Shown here: positions 4,187 through 29,179 of the stretch, piece by piece
Layout: each line of letters starts with the position of its first letter
How positions within the stretch are numbered: position 1 is the first letter of the stretch
From: Planctomycetota bacterium
Lineage (GTDB): Bacteria; Planctomycetota; OFTM77
NCBI GenBank assembly: GCA_029260795.1
Contig: JAJDCO010000094.1
Location: forward strand, 161,193-225,192
DNA length: 64,000 bases
Direction: 5' to 3'
Notes under the pieces: model-generated
Database searches by the model: none
Seen by the model: only the letters and a program-made list of their open reading frames with translations
What the model was told of the DNA's origin: nothing
Program-made: the position numbers and the translations under genes

Positions 4187-4213
4187 GACGCCGACGCGCG
4201 TAGAGACCTTCTC

Positions 4214-5776
4214 TTACTTCGCATACTCGATAACGCGGGACTCTCGCATCAATGTCACTTTGATCTCGCCCGGATAGGTGAGCTCCTGCTCGATCTGGGT
4301 CGCGATCTCGCGAGCGATCTTGGTGGCGAGCCCGTCGTCGACCTTGCCGGCATCGACCACGACGCGGATCTCGCGGCCGGCCTGGACAGCGAAGGCGGAC
4401 TCCACGCCCTGATAGGAGCGAGCCAGATCCTCGAGCCGATTGAGCCGCTTGATGTACCGCTCGATGGTCTCACGTCTCGCACCTGGCCGCGCTGCCGAGA
4501 TGGCATCGGCGGTCTGAGCGATCACGGCATAGATCGATTCGAACGGCACGTCCTCGTGATGGGCGGCGATCGCGTTCACGACCTCGGGTGGCTCGCTGGA
4601 GCGGCGAGCCACCTCGGCACCGATGGCGGGATGCCCGCCCTCCATCTCGTGATCGAGAGACTTCCCGATGTCGTGGAGCAAGCCGCAGCGCTTGGCGAGC
4701 TGCGTGTCGAGGTGCAGCTCGGCGGCGATCCCCGAGGCGATGTAGGCGACCTCGATCGCATGGAAGAGCTGGTTCTGCCCATAGCTGGTTCGGTACTTGA
4801 GCCGGCCGACGAGCTTCTGGACGCGCGGGTGCACATCGGGAAGCTCGAGGTCGTAGCAGGTCTTCTTGCCGACCTCGGCAATCTCCTGCTCGAGCTCGTC
4901 GTGCACGCCCGCGACCACTTCCTCGATGCGTGCCGGTTGGATTCGCCCGTCCTGAACCAGGAGCTCGAGAGCCCGGCGCGCCACCTCCCGACGAACGTTG
5001 TCAAAGCACGAGACCACGACCACTCCGGGCGTATCGTCGACGATCACGTCGACGCCGGTCGCTTTCTCGAAGGCGCGGATGTTGCGGCCCTCGCGACCGA
5101 TGATACGGCCCTTCATCTCGTCGCTCGGAATGTCGACCGTCGAGACGACGGTGTCGGACGTGTACTGGACGGCGCAACGCTGAATCGCCACTCCGATGAT
5201 CTTCTGTGCGATGCGGTCGGTCTCCTCCTTGAGGCGAGTCCGGTGCTTCTCGATGAGGCGGTCCGCGTCGTCTCCCAGCGATTGTTCGAGCTGCTCGAGG
5301 AGCTGCTGGCGAGCCTCATCGCGAGAGAAGCCGGCGATCTCCTCCAGCCGACGCTCACGCTCGGTGACGAGCCGCTGGAGCTCTTGCTCCCGCTCGACGC
5401 TCTCGAGGCGCTTTTGCTCGAGATCCCCCGTTCGGCGCTCGAGATCCAACTCTCGGCGCTCCAGGGTGTGTGCCTTCTTCTCTTGCTGCTCTTCTCGACG
5501 ATTCAGCCGACGCTCGGCCTCGCGCTGCTCGCGCAAGCGCTCCTGCTTCTCGGACTCGAGGACCTCGCGCATCTTGATCTGCTCTTCGCGAGCGGCCAGC
5601 TCGCCTTCGCGACGGAGCGCGGCTCCCTCGTGTCGAGCCTCTTCCATCATCTGACGAACTCGCTTGCGGGCCTGCTGGTGAGCCCGTGCGAGTATGACGC
5701 GGCTCAACCCCATCCCCACGACGACCGCGGCCAGGATCGCGATCCAGAAGAGGGGCTCGCTCAAGATCTCAGACAC
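4214..5776 (-). CDS. rny: Ribonuclease Y
   Basis: 520 aa: N-terminal TM helix, long coiled-coil, KH domain (GRIIGREGRNIRAFE) and HD domain (HDIGK...HHED). GTG start at 5776. Confidence 0.93.
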   Translation of the reverse strand: MSEILSEPLFWIAILAAVVVGMGLSRVILARAHQQARKRVRQMMEEARHEGAALRREGELAAREEQIKMREVLESEKQERLREQREAERRLNRREEQQEKKAHTLERRELDLERRTGDLEQKRLESVEREQELQRLVTERERRLEEIAGFSRDEARQQLLEQLEQSLGDDADRLIEKHRTRLKEETDRIAQKIIGVAIQRCAVQYTSDTVVSTVDIPSDEMKGRIIGREGRNIRAFEKATGVDVIVDDTPGVVVVSCFDNVRREVARRALELLVQDGRIQPARIEEVVAGVHDELEQEIAEVGKKTCYDLELPDVHPRVQKLVGRLKYRTSYGQNQLFHAIEVAYIASGIAAELHLDTQLAKRCGLLHDIGKSLDHEMEGGHPAIGAEVARRSSEPPEVVNAIAAHHEDVPFESIYAVIAQTADAISAARPGARRETIERYIKRLNRLEDLARSYQGVESAFAVQAGREIRVVVDAGKVDDGLATKIAREIATQIEQELTYPGEIKVTLMRESRVIEYAK

Positions 5777-6194
5777 GTCCCAGTTCTCCAGTCCAGCACC
5801 GGTCGCTCTCAGAAAGGAGATCGCCGGTTATGTCATGCTCTCGACGTCAGCGTCGCTGGAGGAGTGCGGGTCGGTCGTGCGATGAAGTGAGCGCAGGGAA
5901 GCGCCGGCAACGAAGATGCCGGCTCCACCCTCGGACGGTAGGCCGAGCCTCGACTCTCGGTCGAAGCATGCTCTCGGCGGCGAACTCGACTTGGTTCATC
6001 CGAGAGCCCCTTGAAGGCGTCCGTGACTCGCAGCCATCGCTACCGTCTATCGCTTCCGCGGACGGTGATCACCGTCCCGGTTCGGAGCCGTATCCGCAAG
6101 AAGGTGCCGTTGGCGCCTTCCGATCCCCCTGCAACATCCCCGCCGAGAGTGCTCGGTCAGCTCTCCTCGATTAGGAACGTTCGGATTATAGGCA

Positions 6195-6222
6195 GGGGCG
6201 AGTTCGACGTCAAGAAATGCAA
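6195..6222 (-). promoter_or_regulatory. Sigma70-like promoter candidate (TTGACG - 16 nt - TATAAT read on minus strand)
   Basis: Minus-strand -35 TTGACG (6222-6217) and perfect -10 TATAAT (6200-6195) in an AT-richer island; would direct transcription toward rny (start 5776), implying a ~0.4 kb leader or an independent small transcript. Confidence 0.3.
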
Positions 6223-6255
6223 GTGCCGCAGGTGTTTGGGACGACCATGCCGTCG

Positions 6256-7788
6256 TCAACCGCGATCTTCGACGGGAGGTTCCAGCACTTGGAGCCACTC
6301 GACCTCGAGCGCTCGCCAGCGCACTTCGTCGATGTCGGACACGATCAATCGGAACCCGGTCGGTGTGATCGTCTGGGGAGACCCGTTCGTCGGAAGAATG
6401 CGTCCCTCGTAGAGATCGAGCTGGACCATGCGCTGCCCCGCGAGCAGGGTCACCACGCAGCGACGGGCCTCGAGACGCTGGAGTATCGACTCTTTGGCAT
6501 CTCGGCGGATGAGCTCGACATCGCCGAGCTCGCCGGCTCCCACGGTCCCGACGCTCGCGAACTGATAGTGCGCGCGCTCTCCCGAGCCGAGGAGCCATTT
6601 GTTGATCTGTGTCAGCTCCGAGCCGGCCAGACCGGGAACGATGACGGGAAGAGCCGTGGTGGTGGTCGGCGCGGGCTCGGTGGCCGGTGCGACGGTCACG
6701 TCGTAGCGCGGACCGATCGCGGTCCAAGCAGCCGGAGCAATGTCGACGACGCGAATCCAGTGGAAGGGATCGATCTCCTGACGGAGCCCATCCTCGACGA
6801 CGGTGCCCTCTTCGAAGCGGAAGTCGGCGATCTTCTCATCGACGTCGATCGTGAGGTGACAGCGACGAGCGACGACCGATCCGATCGGGAGACCGCGCCG
6901 ATTCACGACGCTGGCCGAGACGTTGGCCAGGACTCCAGGCTCGACCGACTCGACCTCCAGGAATCGAAAGAGCGCGCCCGAGTCCTCGAGCAAACGGTTG
7001 AGGTTTCGGCGAGCCTGCTCGGCTGGCTGAGATTCTCCCGTCGCGGCGGGCTTCTTGCCGGGACCGTTCAGGAGATCCTGAGTCGCAGCGGCCTGGAGCT
7101 CGGGCGGCAGCCGACCGATCAATCCCTGCAAGGCCTCCGACTGGAGAGCCTCGGCCGAGAGCCCGTCTCCACCGACGACCCGAGTGCCCGGCTCCAGTCC
7201 TGCGCTCGGCGCTGCCGAGACCGAGTCTCCAATCTCGCTCGCGGCATCGCCCTCCACTGCGGGCGAGGTGAGGGTCGTCGCGGCGTCGGTGGGCGGCTCG
7301 GTGGAGGTCGGGGCATCCCGGGTCGCCGCCAAGTTCGATTGCGCGAGCTTGGCTTGAAGACGCCGAAGCTGCGAGCGCGTCTCCTCGTGGCGAACTTGTC
7401 TTTTGGAGAGAGCGTCTTCCAGGCGCGTCACCTGCTCACGGGCCTCGGACTCCCGCTCGAGCGTCTGATCGAGCTCGAGCTGAAATCGGGCGAGCTGCCG
7501 ATGCACCTCACCCTGAGCGATCAGGATCTTCTGAAAGCGATCGTCGTTTCGCAGCTCGCCTTCTTCGAGGTAGCTGGACGCGACGAGACTCAAGCGCTGC
7601 AGCTCGGTGCGGGCGATCCAGGGCAATGCGACCGCGACCACCAATGCCGTCACACACCAAGCCACGGCCACGATCCAGCCGGCCGAGCGAGCCCGTTCGG
7701 ACGCGGCTCGGTCCTTCGCCTCATTCGTCACGGTCGACCTCTCTGGCGGAATCTCCGCCATCGCCGGGTTCGTCGTCGAGCTCATCAC
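6256..7788 (-). CDS. Hypothetical membrane-anchored protein (N-terminal TM helix, long coiled-coil, Pro/Thr-rich linker, C-terminal globular domain)
   Basis: 510 aa ORF; TM segment WIVAVAWCVTALVVAVALPWIA followed by heptad-like charged region; no family recognised. Start uncertain (7788 or 7761). Confidence 0.55.
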   Translation of the reverse strand: MMSSTTNPAMAEIPPERSTVTNEAKDRAASERARSAGWIVAVAWCVTALVVAVALPWIARTELQRLSLVASSYLEEGELRNDDRFQKILIAQGEVHRQLARFQLELDQTLERESEAREQVTRLEDALSKRQVRHEETRSQLRRLQAKLAQSNLAATRDAPTSTEPPTDAATTLTSPAVEGDAASEIGDSVSAAPSAGLEPGTRVVGGDGLSAEALQSEALQGLIGRLPPELQAAATQDLLNGPGKKPAATGESQPAEQARRNLNRLLEDSGALFRFLEVESVEPGVLANVSASVVNRRGLPIGSVVARRCHLTIDVDEKIADFRFEEGTVVEDGLRQEIDPFHWIRVVDIAPAAWTAIGPRYDVTVAPATEPAPTTTTALPVIVPGLAGSELTQINKWLLGSGERAHYQFASVGTVGAGELGDVELIRRDAKESILQRLEARRCVVTLLAGQRMVQLDLYEGRILPTNGSPQTITPTGFRLIVSDIDEVRWRALEVEWLQVLEPPVEDRG

Positions 7789-8449
7789 CGTAGAAACTGC
7801 TCACGGGCCGCTCGAGGTAGTCCTCGATCTCGCCGCGCGGTAGACGCCTCGCCCCGAGAAGGACTTCCCCGTTTTCGGTCTTCAGAGCGGGGGAAAGCAG
7901 CTCGCGGGTTCGAGAGGGTATTCCCAACATCAAGGCGCGGCTGGAAGACGGAGGCAGCTCGAAGCGTCCGAGGCTGGCGCCGAGCCCATCCAGGATCAAC
8001 CGATCTCGCGGGGCGATCTCGCCGACTCCCTTTCGCAGATCCACGTTGCCGACACGCTCTGAGCCCGAGCCGGTCGTGAGGGTTCCCGGCTGCAGCTCGA
8101 AGACGGTCGGCCTCTCCGCGTCGAAGTTTGCGACGTGGAGGCGCCAGTAGGAATGTGCCTCGCCGTCACCGAGGATTCCGTCGAGCACTCGCTGATCGTA
8201 CGCCGCCGTTTCTCCTCCTCGTCCGCTCGGAATCAACAGGTAGCCGACGGCTCCCTCGAGGTGCGACCAGACGGTCAGCTCCTCTCGATCAGCCGCGGAC
8301 GGATCGGCTGGCGCACTGCCGTCGGAGGTTCGCCCGCTGAAGCAGGGAGCGAGTGCAATGCCACCGACGAGGACGACCAGAGCGAAGGCCGCGTACTGAA
8401 GGCCGATCGCGACCTGTTTTCCCATCGATGAAGACCCTCGGCTGCTCAT
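7721..8449 (-). CDS. Hypothetical secreted protein
   Basis: 242 aa ORF with N-terminal hydrophobic signal-like segment (GLQYAAFALVVLVGGIALAPCFS); no family recognised. Overlaps the start region of the downstream ORF, so boundaries are uncertain. Confidence 0.45.
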   Translation of the reverse strand: MSSRGSSSMGKQVAIGLQYAAFALVVLVGGIALAPCFSGRTSDGSAPADPSAADREELTVWSHLEGAVGYLLIPSGRGGETAAYDQRVLDGILGDGEAHSYWRLHVANFDAERPTVFELQPGTLTTGSGSERVGNVDLRKGVGEIAPRDRLILDGLGASLGRFELPPSSSRALMLGIPSRTRELLSPALKTENGEVLLGARRLPRGEIEDYLERPVSSFYGDELDDEPGDGGDSAREVDRDE

Positions 8450-8464
8450 GGGCTCGACTCTCGC

Positions 8465-9037
8465 TCAATCCTGGACACTCGGCTCGCGGGTCGTGGGCTT
8501 CTCGTCGCCCGCAGCGCCTCGGCGCCGATAGTAGCGATTCAACAGCACGTACGTGACGGGATAGCCGATCAGGGCACCGAGGGTCGCCACCAAGAGGGAG
8601 CCGATCAGAAGCGGCTCGAAGAGCTCCATGCCCAAGTTCCAGAGCTCGCGCAGGCCAGCGATGAATCCCTCACGGCCGAACGACTCCAATCGTACCGCGA
8701 AACTCGAGTATCCGAGCAGCTTCCGTCCGAGGATGAGACTCCCCAGCCAGTAGTAGCCGTAGTACATCGGAATCATCGTCAGCGGATTCGAGATCCAGAC
8801 CCAGGCGCAGGCGACGAACCGGTTCGCCTTGATCAGGGTTCCCAGCAAGAAGACGACGACCATCTGGAAGCCGACAGTCGGCGTCAAGCCCACGAACAGC
8901 CCGAGCGAGACTCCCAAGGAAACGGAGTGCACGGTGGTCTGAAGAGTGAGCATGGGCTGGATGAAGCGGGCGTGAATCCAGCCCATCAGGCGTCCACGCG
9001 GGGTGGGTGATTCGGAATCGGGGAGTTTCGCCATCAC
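8465..9037 (-). CDS. DUF2062-family membrane protein
   Basis: 190 aa; pattern SLGVSLGLFVGLTPTVGFQMVVVFLLGTLIKANRFVACAWVWISNPLTMIPMYY matches my recollection of DUF2062. Confidence 0.65.
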   Translation of the reverse strand: MMAKLPDSESPTPRGRLMGWIHARFIQPMLTLQTTVHSVSLGVSLGLFVGLTPTVGFQMVVVFLLGTLIKANRFVACAWVWISNPLTMIPMYYGYYWLGSLILGRKLLGYSSFAVRLESFGREGFIAGLRELWNLGMELFEPLLIGSLLVATLGALIGYPVTYVLLNRYYRRRGAAGDEKPTTREPSVQD

Positions 9038-9103
9038 TCAGTCGGAAGTCGGGCCCGACACCTCCGAAAGGCAGGGAAGGCACCCCAGAGCTCTGCGAGT
9101 CGA

Positions 9104-9850
9104 TCAGGAGTCGGACTCGTCCTTCTCCTTCGGCCAAACGCGAGGGTTCTTCTTGGCGTCGCCGTACCACTTCCAGTAAGCATCGGCCGAATCCAGCCCT
9201 TGACCGGTCAGCTTGTAGAGTGCCGCATTCATCGGGGCCTTGATGATGTTGTTCTTGCGGACGGCCGTCGAGTTCTTCGGATCGCGAGCCGAGTTCTCGG
9301 CGGACGTGTACACCTTCAACATCTCGCCCACGATCTTGACCCGATACCCGAGCTTCGTCCCCTCGTAGCCACCCAGCGATTCGGCAGCAGTGGCGATGAT
9401 CGAGAAGTCCTTGTCGTTGAGCAGCTTCGTCAGCTCGCCGATCAGGCTGACGTCGGCATTCTTGCCCATGGCCTGAACGATCTTGATTCGAAGGTCTTGG
9501 TCCTTCTTGGCCTTCCTCAAGCTCGACCGCAGCTCCTTGGCGCCGTCCTCACCGAGCTCGCCCAGCGCGCCGGCCGCTTCGAGACGGACGTCCGCGTTGC
9601 GCGAGCCCATGCCGCTGGCGACCTCGTTGGCGATCTGCTTGCGGATCTTCTTGTCGTCGATCTTCTGATACAGCGCCGTCAGCTCGGCGATGACCGCCGG
9701 GGCCGGTCCGTCGGCGCGAGCCGCCTCGAGCGCTTCGATCTGTGCCTCGACGACCGCTCCCAGGTCTTCCTCGTCTTGCTGACACCAGGCGGTCGGCACC
9801 CATGCCATCGCGATCCCGAGGATCACGATGCTGCTCAAGAATTTCGACAT
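9104..9850 (-). CDS. Secreted HEAT/ARM-like repeat protein
   Basis: 248 aa; signal peptide (MSKFLSSIVILGIAMAWVPTAWC), then Ala/Leu-rich helical repeats. Repeat class is judged from composition only. Confidence 0.6.
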   Translation of the reverse strand: MSKFLSSIVILGIAMAWVPTAWCQQDEEDLGAVVEAQIEALEAARADGPAPAVIAELTALYQKIDDKKIRKQIANEVASGMGSRNADVRLEAAGALGELGEDGAKELRSSLRKAKKDQDLRIKIVQAMGKNADVSLIGELTKLLNDKDFSIIATAAESLGGYEGTKLGYRVKIVGEMLKVYTSAENSARDPKNSTAVRKNNIIKAPMNAALYKLTGQGLDSADAYWKWYGDAKKNPRVWPKEKDESDS

Positions 9851-10006
9851 CAGGTTCTAGCTCCCGAAGGGGGAATCCGTTTTTAGGCCCTTGGCACGGC
9901 CGCCTTTGAATCGCCGACGCGCCAAGCGCCCATCATAGCCCTCACCATCACCAACGTCAAAACGACGTCGAATGCTCCTTCGTCCGTCAGATTCCGATCT
10001 TCCGGA

Positions 10007-10855
10007 TCAACTGGACTCTCGCGAGAGCCAACCCTCGTAGAGCTCGAGAGCCCGCAGCGTCCACGGACCCGGTGCGCCTTTGCCGATCAGCTCCCCATCG
10101 AGCTTCACCACCGGAACCACTCCACCGATCGATTGCGTGAGCCAGAGCTCGTCGCACCTCCGAAGCTCGTCGAGTCCAACCGGCTGCTCCTGCACGGGCC
10201 ACCGCGCCTCATCCGCCAGCTCGAGAAGGCGCCTTCGAGTCACGCCGGCCAGCGCCCGATCTCTCACGGGTGGAGTCCGAACGACGCCGTCGATCACGGC
10301 GAAGACGTTGCTGCTCGCTCCCTCGAGCAGGCTGTCCGACGTGTCGACGAGCAAGATCTCCTCCACGTCTCGGCGGGCCCGAGATGCGAGCCACCAGGGC
10401 AGGTAGGAAGTCGTCTTGTGACCGGCGAGCGAGCCACCGTCGAAACGAGTCGTGCCCGCCGTCACTCCTCGCCGGAAGCGTTCGCTCTCGGCAGGCGATC
10501 GAGGACTACCCATCACGAGGGTCACGGGTTCTCGCGGCTCGAATCGTGAGCCGCCTGCGATCGAGCCGGCGGTGATGGTCAATCGCACCCGACCGTCTCG
10601 AAGTTGCGTTCGCTCTCGCCACTGCTCGATCCGGTCTCGGAGACGATCCGCGGGTGGAACCGTCAGGCCGAGAGTGCGAGCCGAGCTCTCCAGCCTCGCC
10701 AGATGGCGATCGCGATCGACGACCCAACGACGCGCGATGCGCATCGTCTCGAACAGACCGGCTCCGTAGAGGAGCGCCGCGTCGAACACCGAGACCCGTG
10801 CGTCCTCGGCCGGAACGAGCTCTCCGTCCAGCGAGACCCAATCGACGTCCGTCAT
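10007..10855 (-). CDS. pabC: Class IV aminotransferase family, aminodeoxychorismate lyase-like
   Basis: 282 aa; fold-type IV PLP enzyme signatures (FETMRI..., conserved Lys region HKTTSYL, ...NVFAV...). ATGA overlap with the upstream PabB-like gene supports a pabBC pair. Confidence 0.78.
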   Translation of the reverse strand: MTDVDWVSLDGELVPAEDARVSVFDAALLYGAGLFETMRIARRWVVDRDRHLARLESSARTLGLTVPPADRLRDRIEQWRERTQLRDGRVRLTITAGSIAGGSRFEPREPVTLVMGSPRSPAESERFRRGVTAGTTRFDGGSLAGHKTTSYLPWWLASRARRDVEEILLVDTSDSLLEGASSNVFAVIDGVVRTPPVRDRALAGVTRRRLLELADEARWPVQEQPVGLDELRRCDELWLTQSIGGVVPVVKLDGELIGKGAPGPWTLRALELYEGWLSRESS

Positions 10856-12243
10856 TCCGAGCTCGCCTCGAACGCGATCGCCTCGGCCGGCGTTTCCCCC
10901 AACAATGCCCGGGCCAACCCGCGCCCCTTAGCTTCCGTCTCGGACCACTCGCTCTCCGGATCGGAGTCCGCGACGATGCCGCTCCCGACATGGAAGGCGC
11001 CGTGCCCTCGCGATGCCATGACGGTCCGGATCGCGATGTTCAAGTCGAGGCGCCCATCGGCTCCGAGGTAGCCAATGGCACCCGTGTAAGCCTCCCGCGG
11101 CACCGGCTCGAGCTCGTGAATGATCTCCATCGCACGCACCTTGGGGGCCCCGGTGATCGAGCCGCCGGGGAAGGTCGCACGCAGCAGCTCCGCTAGCCCG
11201 ACCTCCGCTCGGAGGAACCCCGTGACTTGCGCCTCGAGATGATGGACGGTCGGAAAGCTCTCGAGCCGGCGAGCGGTCTCGACCCGAATGCTCCCGTACT
11301 CGCAAACGCGACCCAGGTCGTTGCGCTCCAGATCGACGATCATGGTGAGCTCGGCGGCATCTTTCGCACTGGCGAGAAGCCGCTCGCGCGCTCGAGCGTC
11401 CGCCGCCGCATCGGCCTCGCGGGGAACGGTCCCCTTGATGGGTCGGGTCTCGACTCGCCGTCCGTCCGTGGCGAGGAAGCGCTCGGGCGACGTCGACCAG
11501 ATCCAGCGTTCATCGCCCAAATCGAGACAGGCGGTGAACGGCCCTCCGTTGAAGCGCCGCAGGCGACGAAAGGGAGCCCCCCCCCGCGTGTCGAGCTCGA
11601 AGTCGAGCCGGCGAGCCAGGTTCACCTGGAAGATGTCACCGGCCGCGATGTACTCGAGCGCCCGCTCGACCGCCCGATGATAGGCGTCGGCCGTGAGGCT
11701 TTCGCGCAAGATGCCTTCGCGGATCCGCCGTCCACTCGACTCCGAAACCGCCCCCGGAAAGGCAACCGCTTCGTGCAGTGATTCGGCCGAAGCGCCTTCG
11801 AGGGCCACCTGCCAGGTGCGCTGCTCTGCATGATCAATGACGAGCGCCGAGTCGTAGTAGCCGAACCAGAGATCGGGTAGGCCGAGCCCCCCCGGGCGCG
11901 GCGTCGGCAGACACTCGACGTGGCCGCCCAGCTCGTATCCGAGGTAGCCGATCGCGCCGCCGGCAAACGGTAGGGCCGAGGAGGGATGCTGACCAAAGCT
12001 CGCGTGCCAGGCCGCCAAGGCATCGAAGGGATCGGACCGCAGGTGGCGCTCGGACCGGCCGCTCCGAATCGTGATGCCGCGTCCACGTGCTTCGATGACC
12101 GAGCGCGGACGCGTCGCGAGCACACTATATCGACCGAGCTCGGGGTATTGGCCGTCGACGCTATCGAGCCAAACGGTACCGGGAGACCGGGACAGACCGG
12201 CCCAGACCGATTCGACGTCTTGGATGTGCGGGATCTCTTCCAT
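10852..12243 (-). CDS. pabB: Aminodeoxychorismate synthase component I (chorismate-binding enzyme family; TrpE/PabB type)
   Basis: Chorismate-utilising enzyme motifs (FPGGSITGAPKVRAMEII..., GAIGY...). Start chosen at internal ATG 12243 (MEEIPHIQ...); ORF-track start 12387 adds 48 residues. PabB rather than TrpE is inferred from coupling to the class-IV aminotransferase. Confidence 0.8.
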   Translation of the reverse strand: MEEIPHIQDVESVWAGLSRSPGTVWLDSVDGQYPELGRYSVLATRPRSVIEARGRGITIRSGRSERHLRSDPFDALAAWHASFGQHPSSALPFAGGAIGYLGYELGGHVECLPTPRPGGLGLPDLWFGYYDSALVIDHAEQRTWQVALEGASAESLHEAVAFPGAVSESSGRRIREGILRESLTADAYHRAVERALEYIAAGDIFQVNLARRLDFELDTRGGAPFRRLRRFNGGPFTACLDLGDERWIWSTSPERFLATDGRRVETRPIKGTVPREADAAADARARERLLASAKDAAELTMIVDLERNDLGRVCEYGSIRVETARRLESFPTVHHLEAQVTGFLRAEVGLAELLRATFPGGSITGAPKVRAMEIIHELEPVPREAYTGAIGYLGADGRLDLNIAIRTVMASRGHGAFHVGSGIVADSDPESEWSETEAKGRGLARALLGETPAEAIAFEASSE

Positions 12244-12420
12244 GTGAAGGCTCGATTCGGTGGCGAGGATCGCTGGACGAGCGAGACAGACTAACACCGA
12301 GTGAGGAAGTGCAGCCAGGGCAGCTCGCAGCGCATTCGCTTCCCAGACATTTCGGCTCCCGGTCGAGGTGAGCCTGTGGGCACTCAACCCGCACGCTGGC
12401 GCACTCCGCGAGAGGGAGGT

Positions 12421-13347
12421 CTACTCGCGATCCTTGCGACCGCGTCCTCGAGGATGGGCTCGCTCATAGACCTCGCGATGCCGCTCCTTGGAAACGTGCG
12501 TGTAGATCTGGGTGGTGGTGAGCCGCTGATGACCGAGCAGCTCTTGCACGGCACGCAAATGGGCTCCCGCGTCCACGAGATGAGTGGCGAAGCTGTGCCG
12601 CAAGGTGTGTGGGCTGATCCGATCCGCGAGGCCGCTTCGAAGCACGTGCTTATCGAGGATCTTGCGCACGCCCCGATCGGTGAGGCGGCCTCCGCGACGA
12701 TTCACGAAGACCGCCACCGGCTCCCTCCCATCGGAGGGGAATCTCCGAACACGCTCCGGGAGGTAGGCCCGCAGACTCTGCGACGCGGAGCGACCGAGGG
12801 GGGCGAGGCGCTCCCGTTTGCCCTTACCGCGCACGCGGGCGACACCATCGATCAAGTCGAGGTCCGTCTCGTCGAGGCCGACCAGCTCGCTGACGCGCAG
12901 GCCGCCACCATAGAGAACCTCGAATAGCGCGCGATCGCGACGCCCCCAGAGCGTCTCGGCTTCGACCGACTCGATCAGGTGATCGATGTCACGAGGTACC
13001 AAGATGTGAGGCAGCTGCTTCTCGCGGCGCGGCGAGCGAATCATCGTCAGCGGATCGTGCTCGATCACGCCTTCACGGATGAGGTATCGAAAGAAGCTCC
13101 GCAGCGACGCGAGACGTCGAGCAATGGTGGCGTCGGCATACCCGTCCTCACGCAGCCCTCCGAGGTAGGCGCGGATCAGCGGGCGCTCGACGCCCTCGAG
13201 GCCCTTCACGCCTCGTCCGCCAGCGAACCGCTGGAAGCCTTGGAGATCCGTCGAATAGGCACGCACCGTGTGCTCGGAGAAGCCCCGACGATGGATCAGA
13301 TGATCGATGAAGCGGTCGACGTGCTCGTCGAGCATGAGGCTCCCCAT
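12421..13347 (-). CDS. Tyrosine site-specific recombinase, XerC/XerD-like
   Basis: 308 aa; C-terminal catalytic region HTLRHSFATHLVDAGAHLRAVQELLGHQRLTTTQIYTHV closely resembles XerC/XerD, with an N-terminal SAM-like core-binding domain. XerC and XerD cannot be distinguished by eye. Confidence 0.85.
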   Translation of the reverse strand: MGSLMLDEHVDRFIDHLIHRRGFSEHTVRAYSTDLQGFQRFAGGRGVKGLEGVERPLIRAYLGGLREDGYADATIARRLASLRSFFRYLIREGVIEHDPLTMIRSPRREKQLPHILVPRDIDHLIESVEAETLWGRRDRALFEVLYGGGLRVSELVGLDETDLDLIDGVARVRGKGKRERLAPLGRSASQSLRAYLPERVRRFPSDGREPVAVFVNRRGGRLTDRGVRKILDKHVLRSGLADRISPHTLRHSFATHLVDAGAHLRAVQELLGHQRLTTTQIYTHVSKERHREVYERAHPRGRGRKDRE

Positions 13348-13445
13348 CCAACGGGCCCTTGCGGGAGCGACCCGCCCGGATCGGTCCCAGGTTCAGCATA
13401 CGGGCACGGGCCCGAGCTGGGCAACCACCCTGGCTCAAAGGCAAA

Positions 13446-13475
13446 GCGCCTCGGGGTCGTGTGACTCCGAGGCGC
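13446..13475 (-). terminator. Hairpin downstream of tRNA-Glu (candidate terminator)
   Basis: Inverted repeat GCGCCTCGG ... CCGAGGCGC (9-bp stem, 12-nt loop) immediately 3' of the tRNA on its strand, followed by a modest U-containing tract (CUUUGCCUUUGAG). Confidence 0.3.
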
Positions 13476-13479
13476 TCGT

Positions 13480-13557
13480 TGGTGACCCCGACGGGATTTG
13501 AACCCGTGTTACCGGCGTGAAAGGCCGGTGTCCTGGACCTGACTAGACGACGGGGCC
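13480..13557 (-). tRNA. tRNA-Glu (anticodon UUC), CCA encoded
   Basis: Minus-strand sequence GGCCCCGTCGTCTAGTCAGGTCCAGGACACCGGCCTTTCACGCCGGTAACACGGGTTCAAATCCCGTCGGGGTCACCA folds as a cloverleaf: 7-bp acceptor stem (one G-U), anticodon stem CCGGC/GCCGG with loop CTTTCAC, T-loop TTCAAAT. Confidence 0.9.
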
Positions 13558-13652
13558 TCACCGACGGTCGATCGACCGCAATCCAGGGGCGATCGTTTTA
13601 ATGGATCGCTCAGAATCGGGAAAGCCCTTTTTGGAAAGGGCGCTCCCGACGG

Positions 13653-15710
13653 CTACCGCAGCTGCCGCTCCAGCGCCGACGCTCGGGAGGCACCGCCCGG
13701 AAGTGCGGCCGCTCGCCTCAGCAGCCCCCGCGCCGTCTCGACCTCGCCATGTCGAGCCTCCCATCCTGCGCGCGCCAGAACGACCTCTAGATCCTGTGGC
13801 CACTTGGCCTCGGCTTCTCGAAGGAGCTCGCCAGCACGGACCACGTCCTGATGGCGCTCCCAGTGTTCGGCCAACGCCACCGAGACGGCCGGTCGCCGAT
13901 AGCGTGCGGCGATCTCGAGGATCGGTCTTGCCTCCCCTTCCGGGAGACCCTCGGCGGCGGCAACCAAGAGCTCGGGACGATCGAGCTCGGCCGAGGCTTG
14001 CCGATAGGCGCGCGAGGCGGACTCCCGCTGCCCCAGTCGCTTCAGCCCCTCGGCGATATCGAGCAAGCGCGCTCCCCGAGTCCAAGTACTGCCTCCCGCG
14101 AAAGGCGGCGAGGCCTCGACACCGAGCCGCAACGCCTCCTCGTAGGCCGCGATGGCCAGCTCCGACTCTTCGACGCGTTCATGGTAAAGGGCTCGCAGGA
14201 AGGCTCCCCCACCACCGGCCGGAAGCCGGTCCAGCTGCCAACGCGCCAGATCCAGTCGGCCTCGCTCCAGGAATGCGAGCATCTCTTCCTGCATGAGCTG
14301 GCGCCCGACATCGGCGACGTACGGTCTCGGGTCGAGCTCGCGATCAGGCTCCCAATCGAGAGGACGCGAGCTCTTCCCACCCAGGTAGCCCAGGCGCCGC
14401 AGAGCCTCCTGCTCACTGGACGACAACGGACGATCCTGGGCACTCGTGCTCGGGGTCCGGAGCGAGGCGACCAAGGACCGATACGTCTCTTCGAGCTTCT
14501 CGCTGCGCGACGAGTCGGCTCGTCCCAAGTCGACCGTCTCGCCGACATCCAGCGCCAGGTCGTAGACTTCCGGAGCCTCGCGATGGTGAACGTACTTCCA
14601 GGACGAGCTGCGCATCCCACGCGCTGGCGTCGTGTTGAACAAGGCCGACAGCATCGCTGCTTCGAGATACACGAAGGGCGTGATGGCGGGTGCCCCTCCG
14701 GCGAGCCAACCCGCGAGCGAGCGTCCTTGAACGGCGGATCCGGCCGGGAGACCGAGCAGATCGAGCACGGTCGGAAAAAGATCGGCCAAGGTGACTTGCC
14801 CATCCAAGATCCGGCCCGCCGGGATTCCGGCCGGCCACCGAATCGCCAACGGGACTCGCTGCGTCGCGTCGTAGATCAGGCTGCCGTGATAGGCTTCGCC
14901 ATGCTCGCCGAGCGCTTCGCCATGATCAGACGTGATGATGACGATCGTGTCGTCGAGACGCTGCCAGCTCTCGAGCTGATCGATGATTCGGCCGAGCTCC
15001 CGATCCGTGTAGGCAATCTCCCCGGCGTACGGATCGTCTCGGTAGGTCTCGTCGAAAGGAGGAGGCGGCAAGTAGCCGAAGTGGGGATCGTAGTAGTGCA
15101 CCCACTGCAGGAACGGAACACCAGATTCTGCGGGCATGGTCAATGCTCGGAGAGCCGCATCGGTCACCTCGGTCGCCCGGCGTTGGTGGTACTCGAACGG
15201 GAAGGGCGCCTCGTTCTCAGACCACTCGTCGTCGTAGACGTCGAAGCCTTGATCGAGTCCATAGTCGCTCGCCAAGGGCAAGGCCCCGATGACTGCCGAC
15301 GTCCAGTAGCCGCGCTTCTGAAGGATCTCGGCCAGCGTCTCGGCCTCGTCCGCCAGCACCGAGACACCGTTGTTGTGGATCCCGTGCGAGATCGGAAAGC
15401 GCCCCGTCCAGATCGTCGCGTGCGCCGGCAGGGTGATGGGACAGGGCGATATCGCTTCGGTGAAGCGGGCCCCTTCCCGAGCGATGCGATCGAACGTCGG
15501 CACCGGCGCGGTGCCCCCCTGGCTCTCGAGCGCATCGGCTCTCACCGTGTCCCAGGTGACGATCAGCACCGAAGGCGGTCGATCCGGCGAGCACCCGATG
15601 AGCAGGAGAAGCACTCCCCACGCGACACATCCGATCGAAGACACACGAAGTCTCACGGTCTGCAAGAGGACCGGCTCCTGGAAGAGAGGGAATCGAGGTG
15701 GCCCAGCCAT
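13653..15710 (-). CDS. Alkaline-phosphatase-superfamily lipoprotein, nucleotide pyrophosphatase/phosphodiesterase (NPP)-like catalytic domain with C-terminal TPR-like repeats
   Basis: Start set at ATG 15710 (MAGPP...LLLLIGCSPD lipobox-like signal). Motifs VLIVTWDTVRADAL, CPITLPAHATIWTGRFPISHGIHNN and ITSDHGEA fit NPP-type enzymes; the sulfatase CxPxR signature is absent. C-terminal 250 aa Ala/Leu/Arg-rich helical repeats. Confidence 0.75.
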   Translation of the reverse strand: MAGPPRFPLFQEPVLLQTVRLRVSSIGCVAWGVLLLLIGCSPDRPPSVLIVTWDTVRADALESQGGTAPVPTFDRIAREGARFTEAISPCPITLPAHATIWTGRFPISHGIHNNGVSVLADEAETLAEILQKRGYWTSAVIGALPLASDYGLDQGFDVYDDEWSENEAPFPFEYHQRRATEVTDAALRALTMPAESGVPFLQWVHYYDPHFGYLPPPPFDETYRDDPYAGEIAYTDRELGRIIDQLESWQRLDDTIVIITSDHGEALGEHGEAYHGSLIYDATQRVPLAIRWPAGIPAGRILDGQVTLADLFPTVLDLLGLPAGSAVQGRSLAGWLAGGAPAITPFVYLEAAMLSALFNTTPARGMRSSSWKYVHHREAPEVYDLALDVGETVDLGRADSSRSEKLEETYRSLVASLRTPSTSAQDRPLSSSEQEALRRLGYLGGKSSRPLDWEPDRELDPRPYVADVGRQLMQEEMLAFLERGRLDLARWQLDRLPAGGGGAFLRALYHERVEESELAIAAYEEALRLGVEASPPFAGGSTWTRGARLLDIAEGLKRLGQRESASRAYRQASAELDRPELLVAAAEGLPEGEARPILEIAARYRRPAVSVALAEHWERHQDVVRAGELLREAEAKWPQDLEVVLARAGWEARHGEVETARGLLRRAAALPGGASRASALERQLR

Positions 15711-15843
15711 CGTTGCGCAAGCACACGGCCTCGGCAAGCACCTGTCTCGGACGGACGTCGGCGGCGGCTCCGCCTCGCCCTGCGAACGGTTCCCGGTTAA
15801 GTTGGGCCCTCCTCGATGACACAGTGATTGGAGCCCCTCGAAG

Positions 15844-17196
15844 ATGGATCCACTTCCCGCGCCCCCGCCGAGTGAAGAAGGCGTGCCACCTGAGCCGCGA
15901 CTGACCTGGCCCGGCCGGAATCCGTACGGCTTCGATCCGGCTCGTCCGGCCATCGAGCCGATCGCGCTCGAGATCTGCGATCCGCGCGGCGAGCTCGAAG
16001 GACAAGCCTCCGGCCTGCCCGACGACCGTTTGATGATCGGTGACAATCTCGATGCGGCAGCCACCTTGATCCACCGCGGATACTCAGGCCGATTCCAGCT
16101 CGTCTACATCGATCCGCCCTTTGCGAGTGACGTCGAGTACGGACACGAGGTGCAGGTCGAGGAGCGTCCGGAGAGCTGGCAGCGCTCGTCGTACTCCGAC
16201 GCCTGGCCGGGCGGGCTCGGCAGCTACCTCGAGATGCTCGGACCGCGCCTCGAAGCGATTCATCGGCTCCTGCACGACGAAGGCAGCCTGTATGTGCACC
16301 TCGATCATCACAGCGTCCACTACGTCAAAGTGCTGCTCGACGAGATCTTCGGCCGTGAGAACTTCCAGCGCGAGATCATCTGGCGCATCGGATGGATCTC
16401 GGGCTTCAAGAGCGCGGCCCGCAACTGGATTCGCAACCACGACACGGTGCTCTTCTACGTCAAGGACCGAGCGCGCTTCTTCTTCGACAAGGCGTACTTG
16501 CCGTACCCGCCCGGCTATCGTCGGCGTGACGGGCAGCTTCCCAAAGGGAAGGGCATTCCCTTGGAAGACGTCTGGAACGGAAGCGCGGCCGATCCGCTGG
16601 ACTCGATTCAAATCAAGTCCTTCTCGGGTGAGAAGACCGGTTTCAACACCCAAAAGAACCTCGCGTTACTCCAACGAATTATCCAAGCCTCCTCGCGCCC
16701 CGGCGATCTCGTCGGCGATCTCTTCGCGGGATCGGGCACGACAGCAGTGGCGGCAGCCACCATGTCGAATGCGGGCGGCGAGCCGGCTGCTCGACGTTGG
16801 ATCGGAGTCGAGCGCGGGCCACTCGGTGCGGCGCTCGCCCGAACGCGACTCCTCGACGCGGGAGCGCCGCCGTTCGCGATCGAAGGCCACGCCCGAGGAC
16901 AGGTCCTCGAGGAAGCGTCGCCCTATCGCTTGATCGTCGAGCCGACGACGAGCGATTCGTTGGAGGTCGTCTTGGAAGACCGGGAGGACGACGCTCCGCC
17001 CGTCGAGGCCTGGAGCCTCGATCCGAGCTTCGACGGCCTGCCGTTTCGGGGTCGGCTCCATCGCTGGAGATCGCTGGGTCGCAAGCGTCGCGCGCCCGAG
17101 CGCCGAATCGTCTTCGATCGAGTGATTGGCGGCGGAACGATCGCGGCGCGCGTGATCGACATCTTCGGGCAGACCACTCACGTCGTCGCGGATTGA
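15844..17196 (+). CDS. DNA methyltransferase, beta-class (N6-adenine/N4-cytosine family; motif IV before motif I)
   Basis: 450 aa; motif IV LVYIDPPF (DPPF favours N6-adenine) followed much later by motif I DLVGDLFAGSGTTAVAA. About 130 aa C-terminal extension of unknown function. No restriction endonuclease candidate adjacent. Confidence 0.82.
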   Translation: MDPLPAPPPSEEGVPPEPRLTWPGRNPYGFDPARPAIEPIALEICDPRGELEGQASGLPDDRLMIGDNLDAAATLIHRGYSGRFQLVYIDPPFASDVEYGHEVQVEERPESWQRSSYSDAWPGGLGSYLEMLGPRLEAIHRLLHDEGSLYVHLDHHSVHYVKVLLDEIFGRENFQREIIWRIGWISGFKSAARNWIRNHDTVLFYVKDRARFFFDKAYLPYPPGYRRRDGQLPKGKGIPLEDVWNGSAADPLDSIQIKSFSGEKTGFNTQKNLALLQRIIQASSRPGDLVGDLFAGSGTTAVAAATMSNAGGEPAARRWIGVERGPLGAALARTRLLDAGAPPFAIEGHARGQVLEEASPYRLIVEPTTSDSLEVVLEDREDDAPPVEAWSLDPSFDGLPFRGRLHRWRSLGRKRRAPERRIVFDRVIGGGTIAARVIDIFGQTTHVVAD

Positions 17197-17638
17197 CGGC
17201 CTGCGGGGTGGAGGCGGTCGCCCCCCACCGGCCGAAGGGTCTGTCGGAGGGCGGACTTCCGCCGAGCTTTGCAGAGGATCGCCGAGGCAGGTGCGTCAGA
17301 TGCCCATCGGATGGATGCTTGGGCCCTTTCGAGGGCATGTGCGCAGGAATCACCGTCCGTTCGGTTCGGAGACGCCCGGAGTCGGCACTTCTGCCAGACC
17401 CGTCAGGCATTGTCCGTCGCGACGTGAACCTCTTCTGCAACGCCCGGGTTCAGCGCCTTGTCGGGCGGCTCAGGTATTCCATCATTTGATACTTGTGAGC
17501 CTTGATTCGAGGGATCGTGAACCGACCTCTTGGACACCCACCGACTGGATTCGGGAACGACGTGCGTTTATAGCTGAGACACGCTGGCGCTCCGAAGACC
17601 GCTGGCCGTGCCGCCTTTCTCTCGTGGAGACCGCCCCG

Positions 17639-18817
17639 ATGTCCAAGCCCGATCGAGGCACCGCCACCCGTTGTGTTCATCCGGGTCCCGGACGCTCCAA
17701 GCCCTTCGACGTCCTCGCCGAGCCGCTCTTTCAGACATCGACCTTCTCCTTCCCTCGCTTTTCCGACCTCGACCGCTACCTCGAGGATCCGACGAGCCAT
17801 CATCTCTACACGCGGTACGAGAACCCGACGACCGACACGCTTCAGTCAGCCCTGGCCGACCTCGAGGGCACGGAGTCCGCCTTGGCCTTGGGGAGCGGCA
17901 TGGCCGCCATCAGCACGGCCCTCTTGGCCGGGCTCGAGCACGGCGATCACGTGATCTTCATGCAGGACACGTATGGAGGCACCCAAGAGCTCGCGCGGAG
18001 CTGGCTGCCGCGCCTGGGCATTGAGACGACCCGCGTCGCGGAAGCCACACCGGACGCCTTCGAGGCGGCTCGACGAGAGAACACCCGGCTGGTCTACCTC
18101 GAGTCCCCCACCAACCCGGTGCTGAAGATCGTCGATCTGACGGCCGTGTCGGATTGGGCGAGCGGTCACGGGCTGACGACGCTGATCGACAACACGATCG
18201 CAGGGCCGATGACCCAGCGCCCCCACGACTTGGGAATCGATGTCGTGCTGCACAGCGCAACGAAGATCCTCGGCGGTCACTCGGATCTCCTGGCGGGTGC
18301 GATCTGCGGCCGATCCGAGTACCTGCGCCGCTGCCGCGAGACGCTGCGTGTGTTCGGCGCCGTGATCGATCCCTTCGTGGCCAGCCAGCTGATTCGAAGC
18401 TTGAAGACGTTGCCGCTCCGGAACGAGCACATCAATGCTTCCGCGCTCCGGGTCGCCCGATATCTCGAAGCGCGGCCCGAGGTCGAGCGCGTGCATTACC
18501 CGTTTCTCGAGTCCCACGCCCAACACGCGGTCGCTCGCCGTCAGATGTCCGGCGGTGGATGCCTGGTGAGCTTCTCGCTCGGTGACGATCTCGAGCGGGT
18601 GCGCCGCTTCGTCGATGCGCTGCAAGTGTTCACGCATGCGGCCAGCCTCGGCTCGGCCGAGAGCTTGGTCTCGGTGCCGGTCACGATGAGCCACTATCAC
18701 GTGCCGCGTGAGCAGCGACTCCAGATGGGTGTGACGGACGGACTGGTGAGGCTGTCCGTCGGCCTCGAAGACGTGAATGATCTCGAGGCCGATCTGGAGC
18801 GAGCCTTGGCGAGCTGA
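17639..18817 (+). CDS. Cys/Met-metabolism PLP-dependent enzyme (cystathionine gamma-synthase/gamma-lyase/beta-lyase family)
   Basis: Start set at ATG 17639 (MSKPDRGTATRCVHPG...); PLP-lysine motif HSATKILGGHSDLLAG. Exact reaction is not assignable by eye. Confidence 0.85.
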   Translation: MSKPDRGTATRCVHPGPGRSKPFDVLAEPLFQTSTFSFPRFSDLDRYLEDPTSHHLYTRYENPTTDTLQSALADLEGTESALALGSGMAAISTALLAGLEHGDHVIFMQDTYGGTQELARSWLPRLGIETTRVAEATPDAFEAARRENTRLVYLESPTNPVLKIVDLTAVSDWASGHGLTTLIDNTIAGPMTQRPHDLGIDVVLHSATKILGGHSDLLAGAICGRSEYLRRCRETLRVFGAVIDPFVASQLIRSLKTLPLRNEHINASALRVARYLEARPEVERVHYPFLESHAQHAVARRQMSGGGCLVSFSLGDDLERVRRFVDALQVFTHAASLGSAESLVSVPVTMSHYHVPREQRLQMGVTDGLVRLSVGLEDVNDLEADLERALAS

Positions 18818-18827
18818 CGCGGATTCC

Positions 18828-20234
18828 TCAGCGACGCATGTGACAGTACTTCACGAACTCTTCCTCGAACTCATCGAGGGAGAGCCCGAGCGTGCTTTGA
18901 ATGGCCCGCTCGATGGCCGGGAGATCGTTGCGCCTGGTCTTCCCAACCGCATGGAGGAACTCCTGGAAGCTCTTCCGGGTGCTCTTGCTTCGGTGAACGA
19001 ACTCGATCACCAACGCGGCCTGCGTGTAGTTGTCACTCGCCTCGTTGCCGCCCTTCGTCTGCTTGGCGGCCGCCGAGTAGAGCATGCTCGTGATGACGAA
19101 GAACTCGCGAAGCGCGACGTGCTCGCGGTCCTTCACGGCTCGAGCGACGACGTTGAGCTCGTTCTTCGACGTCGAGATGTACTCGGCTACGCCCTCCTGG
19201 AACCAGGACCCGCCCCCTGACAGACGAAGCCGGTTCCTGAAGATCTGGTGCGTGGCCTCGTGGAGGTGCGTCGGGTCGTTGGGCGCCTCATACCAGGTTG
19301 CGTAGTAGTCTCGCCAGGCGTGTCCCTTGGAGCGCCTGGCCGCCTCCTTGCTGGTCTTGGCGATCTTCACGTAGAAGTCGTAGTACTCGTCCGCATTGCG
19401 GAAGAGGAACACCGGCATCAAGCGGTTGCCCTTCACCTCCTCGAACGGATACTGCTTTTGAATCTTCCGATAGAACTCCTCCATGTACTTGGCGAAGGAC
19501 TGACCGCCCGAGGAGTTCGTGAAGATGATGTAGTGCTTGGTGCGGATGATCTTGAAGTCGCCCTTGTATCCCTCGGGCGCATCGTGCAGCCAACGGTCTC
19601 GGGCCTCCTCCTCGGTCCACTTGACGTTCCAGACCTCGCCGCTGTATCGAACGCCCTTCTCGAGGAAGTCCAGGATCGCTTGCTCGTGCTCGCCGGTCGC
19701 GGCCGGTCGGCACTCGACCTCGACCATGTAACCGTTCTCGCGAAGCAAGGCGGCGAGGAAGTAGGTGTTGCCCGCGGCGCTGGTCTCGCCTTCGAGCCGG
19801 ATGTCTGAGCGCGCGAAGCTCGCAAAGGGCGCATATCCGAACTCGCCGTCTGCGATCTCCTTGTCCGTGAAGTGAAAGTCCTTCTCGCGGCGCTGCCGAT
19901 TCTCCTCGATGATCTCGAGGACGTCTTCGGGCGCCTGAAACCCGAACTGGGAGTTGGGCAGCAGCCAAAAGCTGATCGCGACCTGAGCAGGGCCGAGCTG
20001 GCCGGTCCACAGGCCACGCCGCTGATTGCTGATCCCTTCCTCGCGAGACTGAAGCTCTGCCAGATCGGGCAGGGTGAGATTCAGGCCCAAGTCCTCGAAC
20101 TCCACCAGTCGAGGCGTGTCATCGATCGAGCTCGGCTTCGGAGCCGCAGACGCCAACGGCGCGAGAAAGGTGACGGTCATCAGCGCCAGTCCGAGTCGGT
20201 GAACCGAGAATCGCGCGCGCACCTTGCCGATCAT
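18828..20234 (-). CDS. Secreted HEXXH-motif protein, putative zinc metallopeptidase (DUF1570-like)
   Basis: 468 aa; signal peptide (LALMTVTFLAPLASA); HEATH followed ~20 aa later by EGVAEY, a gluzincin-like HEXXH...E arrangement. Confidence 0.65.
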   Translation of the reverse strand: MIGKVRARFSVHRLGLALMTVTFLAPLASAAPKPSSIDDTPRLVEFEDLGLNLTLPDLAELQSREEGISNQRRGLWTGQLGPAQVAISFWLLPNSQFGFQAPEDVLEIIEENRQRREKDFHFTDKEIADGEFGYAPFASFARSDIRLEGETSAAGNTYFLAALLRENGYMVEVECRPAATGEHEQAILDFLEKGVRYSGEVWNVKWTEEEARDRWLHDAPEGYKGDFKIIRTKHYIIFTNSSGGQSFAKYMEEFYRKIQKQYPFEEVKGNRLMPVFLFRNADEYYDFYVKIAKTSKEAARRSKGHAWRDYYATWYEAPNDPTHLHEATHQIFRNRLRLSGGGSWFQEGVAEYISTSKNELNVVARAVKDREHVALREFFVITSMLYSAAAKQTKGGNEASDNYTQAALVIEFVHRSKSTRKSFQEFLHAVGKTRRNDLPAIERAIQSTLGLSLDEFEEEFVKYCHMRR

Positions 20235-27870: not shown

Positions 27871-29166
27871 ATGTTGCGTCTCAGCCTCGCCCTCTCTTGC
27901 TCACTGCTCTGCGTGTCGCCGGCCTTGGCTCAGGAAGGCAGTGATTGGCCTCAGTTCCAGGGGCCCGATCGCTCGGGCGCTTCCACCGAGACCCAGCTGG
28001 CTTGGAGCTGGGGCGAGAGAGGCCCGAAGGTGATGTGGTCGACTGAGCTCGGCCCCGGCTACGGCGGAGCGGCGGTCCTGGGTGACGAGGTCTTCGTGCT
28101 CGATCGGATCGCGGAAGAGCAAGACATCCTGCGATGCTTCGACTTGGCGACCGGCAGCGAGAAGTGGAACTTCGCCTACGCCGCTCCGGGGCGACTGGAC
28201 TACCCGGGCTCGCGCGGAGTGCCGGCCGTGACCGCGGATCACGTGTACACGATCGGCGGATTCGGCCAGGTGCTGTGCGTCGACCGCAAGACGCATGAGC
28301 CGGCTTGGAGAGTCGACCTGGCGGACCAATACGAGGCTCACATCCCGCAATGGGGCTGGGCGCAGTCGCCCTTGGTCACCGAGAAGTCGGTCATCGTGGC
28401 GCCCCTGGCCCGAGACGCGGGGCTCGCCGCCTTGAACCTCCGGACGGGCAAGGAAGTCTGGCACTCCCCGGGACTGGGCACGACGCACTCCTCTCCGGCA
28501 TTGCTACACATCCAAGGGAAGGACCAGGTCCTCTTGGTCACGACCAAGGGTCGCACCGGTCTGATCACGAGCGTGGATCCGAAGACGGGGCAGATCCTGT
28601 GGCAGCACGACCAGTACTTCTGCCGTTTCCCCATCACGGCACCCATTCGAATCGACGACGAGCGCGTGTTCGTAACGGGCGGCTACGGAGCCGGCTCACT
28701 CATGCTGAAGGTCGCACGGGGCTCGAGCAAGAGCTGGTCGGTAACCGAGCTCTATCGGCTGGAGAAGGGCTCTCAGGTTCACCTCCCGATGCTGATCGAC
28801 GATCATCTCTATCTCATGGCGAACGAGAACGGCACGGACAGTCCTCGGCGGCGCCAGAATGGCGGCCTGATGTGTGTCGATCTGAAGGGCAACGTGAAAT
28901 GGCGCACCGGCGCCGAGCCCTACTTCGGTCGCGGAAACTCGATCGTGGTCGGTGGCCAGCTGATTACGCAGGACGGCCTCAGCGGCACGCTGCGAGTCAT
29001 CGAGCCGTCGCCTTCCCAGTACCGTGCCATTGCCGAGGCGAATGTGTTCGGCACCGAGACGCAGCGCGACGAGCACATGTGGGCGCCGATGGCGCTGAGC
29101 CGAGGTCGTCTGCTGATGCGGAGCCAAGATCGGATGCTCTGCCTGGACGTCCGCGCCAGCCAGTGA
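27871..29166 (+). CDS. PQQ-like beta-propeller repeat protein (BamB/PQQ_2-like), secreted (paralog 1)
   Basis: 431 aa; signal peptide; N-terminal WPQFQGPDRSG motif shared by the six paralogs; repeated propeller blades (G..YA.D..TG...W). Confidence 0.82.
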   Translation: MLRLSLALSCSLLCVSPALAQEGSDWPQFQGPDRSGASTETQLAWSWGERGPKVMWSTELGPGYGGAAVLGDEVFVLDRIAEEQDILRCFDLATGSEKWNFAYAAPGRLDYPGSRGVPAVTADHVYTIGGFGQVLCVDRKTHEPAWRVDLADQYEAHIPQWGWAQSPLVTEKSVIVAPLARDAGLAALNLRTGKEVWHSPGLGTTHSSPALLHIQGKDQVLLVTTKGRTGLITSVDPKTGQILWQHDQYFCRFPITAPIRIDDERVFVTGGYGAGSLMLKVARGSSKSWSVTELYRLEKGSQVHLPMLIDDHLYLMANENGTDSPRRRQNGGLMCVDLKGNVKWRTGAEPYFGRGNSIVVGGQLITQDGLSGTLRVIEPSPSQYRAIAEANVFGTETQRDEHMWAPMALSRGRLLMRSQDRMLCLDVRASQ

Positions 29167-29179
29167 GGCCGAGAAGAGG

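Follow-up and report, generated by a model that had tools for sequence, protein, structure and literature searches.

The gene at positions 15844..17196, on the forward strand of a 64,000-nucleotide stretch of contig JAJDCO010000094.1 from a Planctomycetota bacterium (GCA_029260795.1; hereafter the window), very probably encodes a functional solitary DNA N6-adenine methyltransferase, one that descends from the modification (Mod) subunits of Type III restriction-modification (R-M) systems, has no restriction (Res) partner and is inherited vertically as a chromosomal gene. Solitary Mod-like enzymes and lineage-conserved orphan methyltransferases are a well-known phenomenon. The original prediction, made from the letters of the DNA and its open reading frames (ORFs), had proposed an orphan beta-class methyltransferase, possibly CcrM-like and regulatory, with a C-terminal extension of about 130 residues that it could not explain. 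The gene and the parts of its product are as follows.

15844..17196, forward strand: methyltransferase gene, 450 codons plus stop (ORF list; Pfam PF01555, E=6.4e-35; upstream sequence)
15844..16023, forward strand: N-terminal region, residues 1-60, with an L-x-W-P-G-K/R motif (LTWPGR, residues 20-25)
16024..16878, forward strand: catalytic fold dependent on S-adenosylmethionine (SAM), beta-class motif order, residues 61-345
16111..16122, forward strand: motif IV, DPPF, residues 90-93, catalytic pocket for a flipped adenine, invariant in 40 family members
16468..16647, forward strand: short middle segment in the usual slot of the target recognition domain (TRD), residues 209-268 (conservation, AlphaFold2 (AF2) model, comparison with EcoP15I)
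16723..16743, forward strand: motif I, FAGSGTT, residues 294-300, SAM binding; G296, S297, G298 and T300 are kept throughout the family
16879..17193, forward strand: C-terminal extension, residues 346-450: seven-strand PKD/Ig-like beta-sandwich after a short linker

The ORF begins with ATG, is preceded by GGAG ~10 nt upstream and yields a product of 450 aa; its GC content and its GC content at third codon positions (GC3) equal those of its neighbours and of the genome. PF01555 (N6_N4_Mtase) matched residues 85-324 with 121.5 bits against a cut-off of 26.7, far beyond chance. Motif IV, within LVYIDPPF (residues 86-93; nt 16099-16122), lies N-terminal to motif I, which is the circularly permuted order of the beta class; the ORF, both motifs and their order were found where the original prediction had placed them. 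When 40 family members were aligned, all 73 of the 73 family-invariant residues proved to be kept in the window protein. An aspartic acid in DPPF is typical of N6-adenine enzymes, the alternative motif being SPPF/Y. Because the protein carries DPPF instead of SPPF/Y, and because its nearest characterised relative produces N6-methyladenine (m6A), it is predicted to be a beta-class amino-methyltransferase that is probably specific for N6-adenine, in agreement with the earlier assignment. The equivalent DPPY of EcoP15I touches the extrahelical adenine (PMC4490356). An insert of ~8 residues (the TMSNAGGEPAARR region, residues 306-316, ~nt 16759-16791) directly follows motif I; it occurs only in three Planctomycetota-clade orthologues, and the 37 other family members in the alignment lack it.

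A sequence search of solved structures placed the protein among the Type III Mods, with 6k0w (H. pylori), Mbo45V (7dsu) and the EcoP15I Mod (4zcf) as the best matches; MboIIA, M.BceJIV, CcrM and RsrI ranked behind them, E values being ~1e-16 for the Type III Mods versus ~1e-9 for small solitary or Type II beta-class enzymes. By fold, too, the nearest relatives were Type III Mod subunits, and the PADLOC methyltransferase models of Types II and III matched the protein at E=1e-47 to 1e-42. Membership in the CcrM family was rejected: the NCBIfam equivalog NF050803 scored 56.3 bits against a cut-off of 830, and no similarity to CcrM extends beyond the core. The comparison with CcrM and with type II/III enzymes that had been suggested thus ended with Type III Mods as the closest kin, and "CcrM-like" was dropped as a family label.

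The window protein shares with the EcoP15I Mod and the other solved Type III Mods the beta-class motif order, a D-P-P-(Y/F) motif and an N-terminal region ahead of the core. The EcoP15I Mod has an alpha/beta C-terminal domain (CTD) that contacts Res and, inserted between motifs VIII and X, a 122-aa TRD (residues 263-384; PMC4490356), whereas the window protein has a 60-aa invariant segment, an all-beta C-terminal domain and no Res partner. M.BceJIV, M.MboIIA and M.RsrI resemble it in having a compact core devoid of a large central TRD, and superpose at a root-mean-square deviation of 2.7-3.1 Å over 220-232 residues, but they lack both its N-terminal LxWPGK region and its C-terminal beta-sandwich. 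Two features that define the Type III system, a res gene (none in the window) and a central TRD, were not found for this descendant, which is solitary (orphan) by the operational definition.

The nearest characterised relative is P0005, a 503-aa protein of Moorella (Neomoorella) thermoacetica. The two proteins share 43% identity over 96% of the query, and a neighbour-joining tree built on the core places P0005 as the sister clade of the window protein. The published cloning primers for MothHH_01297 (Moth_1213), taken from the supplement of Jensen et al. 2019 (PMC6700114), fit both ends of the P0005 gene in its locus (L003); the reverse primer is exact, and the forward primer differs by a TTG-to-ATG start change and one synonymous base. 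Moth_1213 is annotated as a Type III methyltransferase of specificity AACCA (m6A); when it was expressed alone in E. coli, AACCA was methylated at its last adenine, and in the native genome 99.7% of AACCA sites carry the modification (Jensen et al. 2019, PMC6700114). Like the window protein, Moth_1213 combines an N-terminal LxWxxK motif, a beta-class core whose middle segment is short and invariant, and a PKD-like sandwich at the C-terminus, and it too is solitary, with housekeeping genes on both sides and no Res gene in its locus. It differs in its length, in an extra ~55-aa helical insert ahead of the conserved part of the C-terminal domain, and in coming from another phylum (Bacillota); identity in the C-terminal domain is only 20%, and the target of the window protein therefore need not be AACCA. 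A related protein of Neomoorella glycerini (P0007, 557 aa) carries an extra tail after the beta-sandwich, with a match to PF07927 (HicA-toxin-like).

Most relatives of the protein adjoin Res genes, the arrangement of mod-res operons. A 623-aa homologue in Leucobacter tenebrionis is followed immediately downstream by a 974-aa ResIII-type gene, and a hidden Markov model (HMM) was built from this Res protein and its first-round matches. Among 80 loci recovered from species-representative genomes, the model detected a same-strand Res-type gene of ~850-1000 aa beside the methyltransferase in ~62, so that most of the family represents the Mod side of Type III mod-res operons. When the same model and tblastn were applied to the 64-kb window, no Res homologue was detected, and the model likewise gave no match in the locus of a related Planctomycetota genome (L001, described below) or in L003. 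Pfam scans of the ~48 ORFs of the window revealed no nuclease, helicase, phage, plasmid or mobile-element gene. The ORFs identified are housekeeping or metabolic: XseA, YmdB, RNase Y, PabB, an aminotransferase of class IV, a sulfatase and an enzyme dependent on pyridoxal phosphate (PLP), together with a CDF transporter, cytochrome c, PA14 proteins, many PQQ-like beta-propellers, MacB/FtsX, a GT4 glycosyltransferase, HemN, GH95, GDH and a peroxiredoxin. The original prediction had seen no endonuclease-like ORF beside the gene, and the searches extend this to any restriction or endonuclease gene in the window. The other short forms examined (447-450 aa; P0091, P0093 and P0020), as well as Moth_1213, also have no Res gene nearby.

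On the ENA contig that carries P0091, two PF01555 genes (417 and 447 aa) overlap in tandem among housekeeping genes with no Res; the P0091 gene lies at 5232-6575 and the gene upstream of it at 3982-5235. Two solitary relatives of Myxococcota type (450 and 549 aa) share a conserved gene cluster (L086 1572-7834; L088 720-8650), in which a DEAD/Helicase_C/MZB helicase, an RNase_H_2-type exonuclease, a gene of ~300 aa, a cytochrome c and the methyltransferase follow one another; the helicase-exonuclease pair may resemble repair genes of the MrfA/MrfB type.

The gene occupies a chromosomal locus that is kept in relatives. Window positions 6256-20234 (~14 kb) are collinear with L001, a locus of the Planctomycetota metagenome-assembled genome (MAG) G1-WW12-33 (GCA_040219065.1), the sole related genome with long flanks in the databases. 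The MAG methyltransferase is 65% identical and likewise lies between a sulfatase and a PLP enzyme, while 11 neighbouring genes are 45-79% identical; the methyltransferase has therefore diverged as fast as the surrounding housekeeping genes. A third orthologue, on a short metagenomic contig (L170), is 56% identical and again adjoins a sulfatase, which is 53% identical to that of the window and lies downstream on the same strand as the methyltransferase (L170 1540-2157). The adjacency of methyltransferase and sulfatase is thus kept in three lineages, in differing orientation. A genome scan for orthologues returned one close orthologue, and a metagenome scan none closer than 51-54% over the core; for the PLP enzyme, 73% identical in the MAG, the next match among 5.8 billion proteins was at 50%.

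A genomic-island origin was considered, as a recombinase and a tRNA-Glu lie 2.3-3.4 kb upstream, and was rejected. The tyrosine recombinase (12421-13347) scores as a housekeeping XerC/D, with 311 bits where NF001399 requires 279, and is 79% identical and syntenic in the relative; the end of the tRNA-Glu is unduplicated, no att-like repeat of its 3' end being found in the window, and any island would run away from the methyltransferase. Searches of plasmid and phage records yielded no homologue above 40% identity. Strain-specific cargo of a mobile element, which would have conflicted with the orphan view, was accordingly not borne out: the locus is syntenic, and L170 keeps the sulfatase adjacency. 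The orphan status suggested for the gene holds up on both counts, the window containing no Res or nuclease gene and the locus being chromosomal and syntenic, and the conservation in related genomes that had been proposed as a check was found at 65% (syntenic) and 56% (sulfatase-adjacent), in two or three lineages. Within the collinear region, the pabB/pabC pair and xerC/D are each inverted in place (window 10007-13347 versus L001 3953-7182), and the tRNA-Glu beside xer is kept in both; L001 also has a tRNA-Gln (12644-12713), located between the PLP enzyme and the gene that follows, to which nothing in the window corresponds.

The C-terminal extension is real, and it is now partly explained. 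The catalytic fold continues, with a helix and a strand, to about residue 345, and this leaves ~105 residues (346-450) as the true extra part; the earlier figure of ~130 aa arose because ~126 residues lie past the Pfam envelope. The AF2 model confidently predicts a folded domain at ~residues 360-450, and the extension bears the motifs W-S-L-D-P-S-F-D-G (390-398) and I-D-I-F-G (438-442) as well as a basic loop, LGRKRR (411-416), that is near-identical across the three Planctomycetota-clade orthologues. As a whole, residues 346-450 are the least conserved part of the protein (column conservation 0.38; 33% identity to the syntenic orthologue). A profile of the domain matched ~30 of the closer loci, most of them Res-linked. 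Searched against 1.84 billion representative sequences, it returned 1,379 proteins at E<=1e-3; among PDB sequences it had no match at E<=10. Nearly all of these proteins, 430-790 aa long, have the domain at their very C-terminus, and those sampled are PF01555 enzymes. The PKD/Ig-like sandwich is thus the standard C-terminal module of this Mod subfamily and, since Res-linked members have it, no orphan-specific addition. In two exceptions, P0248 and P0331, the sandwich is followed by HTH_3 and Peptidase_M78 (ImmA/IrrE-like) domains, or by a ResIII helicase segment, arrangements that may reflect fused gene calls or truncated contigs.

The slot in which a central TRD would be expected holds 60 residues, versus 122 in EcoP15I, and the same is true of Res-linked members of the subfamily. 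These residues (209-268) form the most conserved stretch of the family: column conservation is 0.76, and the syntenic orthologue is 83% identical here. The AF2 model leaves two strongly conserved loops, 183-197 and 245-269, disordered, with predicted local distance difference test scores below 50 at residues 245-247 and 251-269; such disorder fits what is expected of DNA-contacting or base-flipping elements. Because the TRD slot is short and invariant, and because the sandwich is the most variable part of the protein and carries a basic loop, the site is most likely recognized with the help of the C-terminal sandwich and the two loops, probably within a dimer, as in other beta-class enzymes. 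The N-terminal region, weakly conserved outside LTWPGR (region conservation 0.40 in the family alignment), may by analogy serve in dimerisation. Long Res-linked relatives have an extra alpha/beta module of ~100-170 residues between the core and the sandwich, which the window protein does not; a correspondence between this module and the Res-docking CTD of EcoP15I could not be shown.

A broader proposal, which we regard as doubtful, would make the whole Mod subfamily (~1,400 clusters at 50% identity, many of them Res-linked) an uncharacterised class in which the central TRD has been replaced by the short invariant segment and recognition has moved to the C-terminal PKD/Ig-like sandwich. The resulting succession of catalytic region, SAM region and recognition domain would be "delta-like", and the short forms would be minimal versions, solitary epigenetic writers kept in the core genomes of several phyla.

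We reasoned that, if the protein is a solitary descendant of Type III Mods, its Res helicase-nuclease partner would have been lost, or would never have been present in this lineage. The enzyme would bind SAM through FAGSGTT and flip the target adenine into the DPPF pocket. By analogy with the EcoP15I Mod2 dimer, it would probably act as a homodimer, one protomer reading the site while its partner methylates, and, as Moth_1213 does at AACCA, it would probably mark one strand of a short asymmetric site. Such a mark may serve epigenetic regulation, may protect against incoming Type III systems that share its specificity, or may have no biological role.

With a family that is overwhelmingly Res-linked, the protein might instead be the Mod of a working Type III R-M system whose Res gene lies elsewhere in the genome, beyond the window. 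In every Res-linked relative seen, however, the retrieved locus contained the Res gene on the methyltransferase's own strand, next to it in most cases and a few kb away, at most ~6 kb, in a few (L017 and L074 among them), whereas here housekeeping genes occupy both flanks and do so again in the relative. Size argues in the same direction: Res-linked relatives are mostly ~555-715 aa, with a few shorter ones (468-554 aa) that also have Res, compared with 450 aa for the window protein; the long forms examined carry the additional module that it lacks, and the short forms examined resemble it in having no Res gene nearby. We consider a distant Res partner highly unlikely. Nor is the gene likely to be a cell-cycle or global epigenetic regulator of the CcrM type, given that, apart from the low equivalog score, its nearest relatives are restriction-linked and its orthologue group is small and lineage-restricted. 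That it might be a decaying, functionless remnant of a lost R-M system is suggested by the absence of both the Res partner and the long-form module, and by the fast divergence of the C-terminal domain between orthologues; yet the reading frame is intact in three lineages, the family-invariant residues and both catalytic motifs are kept, the core is 76-83% identical to the orthologue, equal to or above neighbouring housekeeping genes, and GC and GC3 match the genome, all of which makes a remnant extremely improbable.

Several points nevertheless weigh against our preferred account of a functional, vertically inherited solitary enzyme that recognizes its site through the sandwich. The Res scan covered 64 kb, on a contig that is at least 228 kb long, and a Res gene might lie farther away. 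Conservation in relatives rests on two or three lineages because sampling is sparse: the lineage is very sparsely represented, with one genome that has long flanks. Specificity cannot be transferred from Moth_1213 at 43% identity, and both the activity and the site are predictions. The AF2 model is uninformative on DNA contacts and dimerisation, and the fast divergence of the sandwich could equally mean weak constraint.

If the gene is such a solitary enzyme, one additional m6A motif, probably short and asymmetric, is predicted for this genome, written by a gene outside defence. The family shows a repeated conversion of Type III Mods to stably inherited solitary enzymes, in Planctomycetota, Moorella and genomes of Myxococcota type, and its domain layout, with no central TRD and a variable C-terminal Ig-like domain, raises a testable question about where the recognition site is read. 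Neither the conversion nor the layout would surprise a specialist in restriction-modification; this is an ordinary kind of gene.

Two genes flank the methyltransferase as its surroundings; the upstream one does not form a system with it.

13653..15710, reverse strand: divergent upstream gene, sulfatase family, lipoprotein-like (PF00884, E=8e-43); the start at 15710 is approximate, taken from the relative
17639..18817, forward strand: downstream PLP enzyme of Cys/Met metabolism (PF01053, E=4e-125)

The upstream gene, 61% identical to its syntenic counterpart in L001, had been labelled NPP-like; the phosphodiesterase/NPP model PF01663 is second-best, at 3.3e-14, and the sulfatase label replaces it. 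The downstream assignment to a Cys/Met PLP enzyme stands, with its start moved: alignment to relatives indicates that the gene probably starts near 17639 instead of 17291. The non-coding gap between the methyltransferase and this gene (17197-17638) is consequently 442 bp long, compared with 170 bp in the relative. Neither in this gap nor around the methyltransferase did a riboswitch or another RNA element reach the Rfam gathering score, the sole matches having E of 0.3-0.7, and a scan of the gap for promoter-like or terminator-like sites, in itself uninformative, detected none.

Farther downstream, at 18828-20234 on the reverse strand, lies a gene for a lineage-restricted 468-aa protein that is 69% identical in the relative; it gave weak matches of HExxH metalloprotease type (flagellinolysin and collagenase M9 models), all below cut-offs. 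At least seven paralogous PQQ_2/BamB-like beta-propeller genes are distributed over 27871-36405, 44431-45693 and 52760-54640, one of which adjoins a gene for a tryptophan-halogenase-like flavoprotein (33182-34510).
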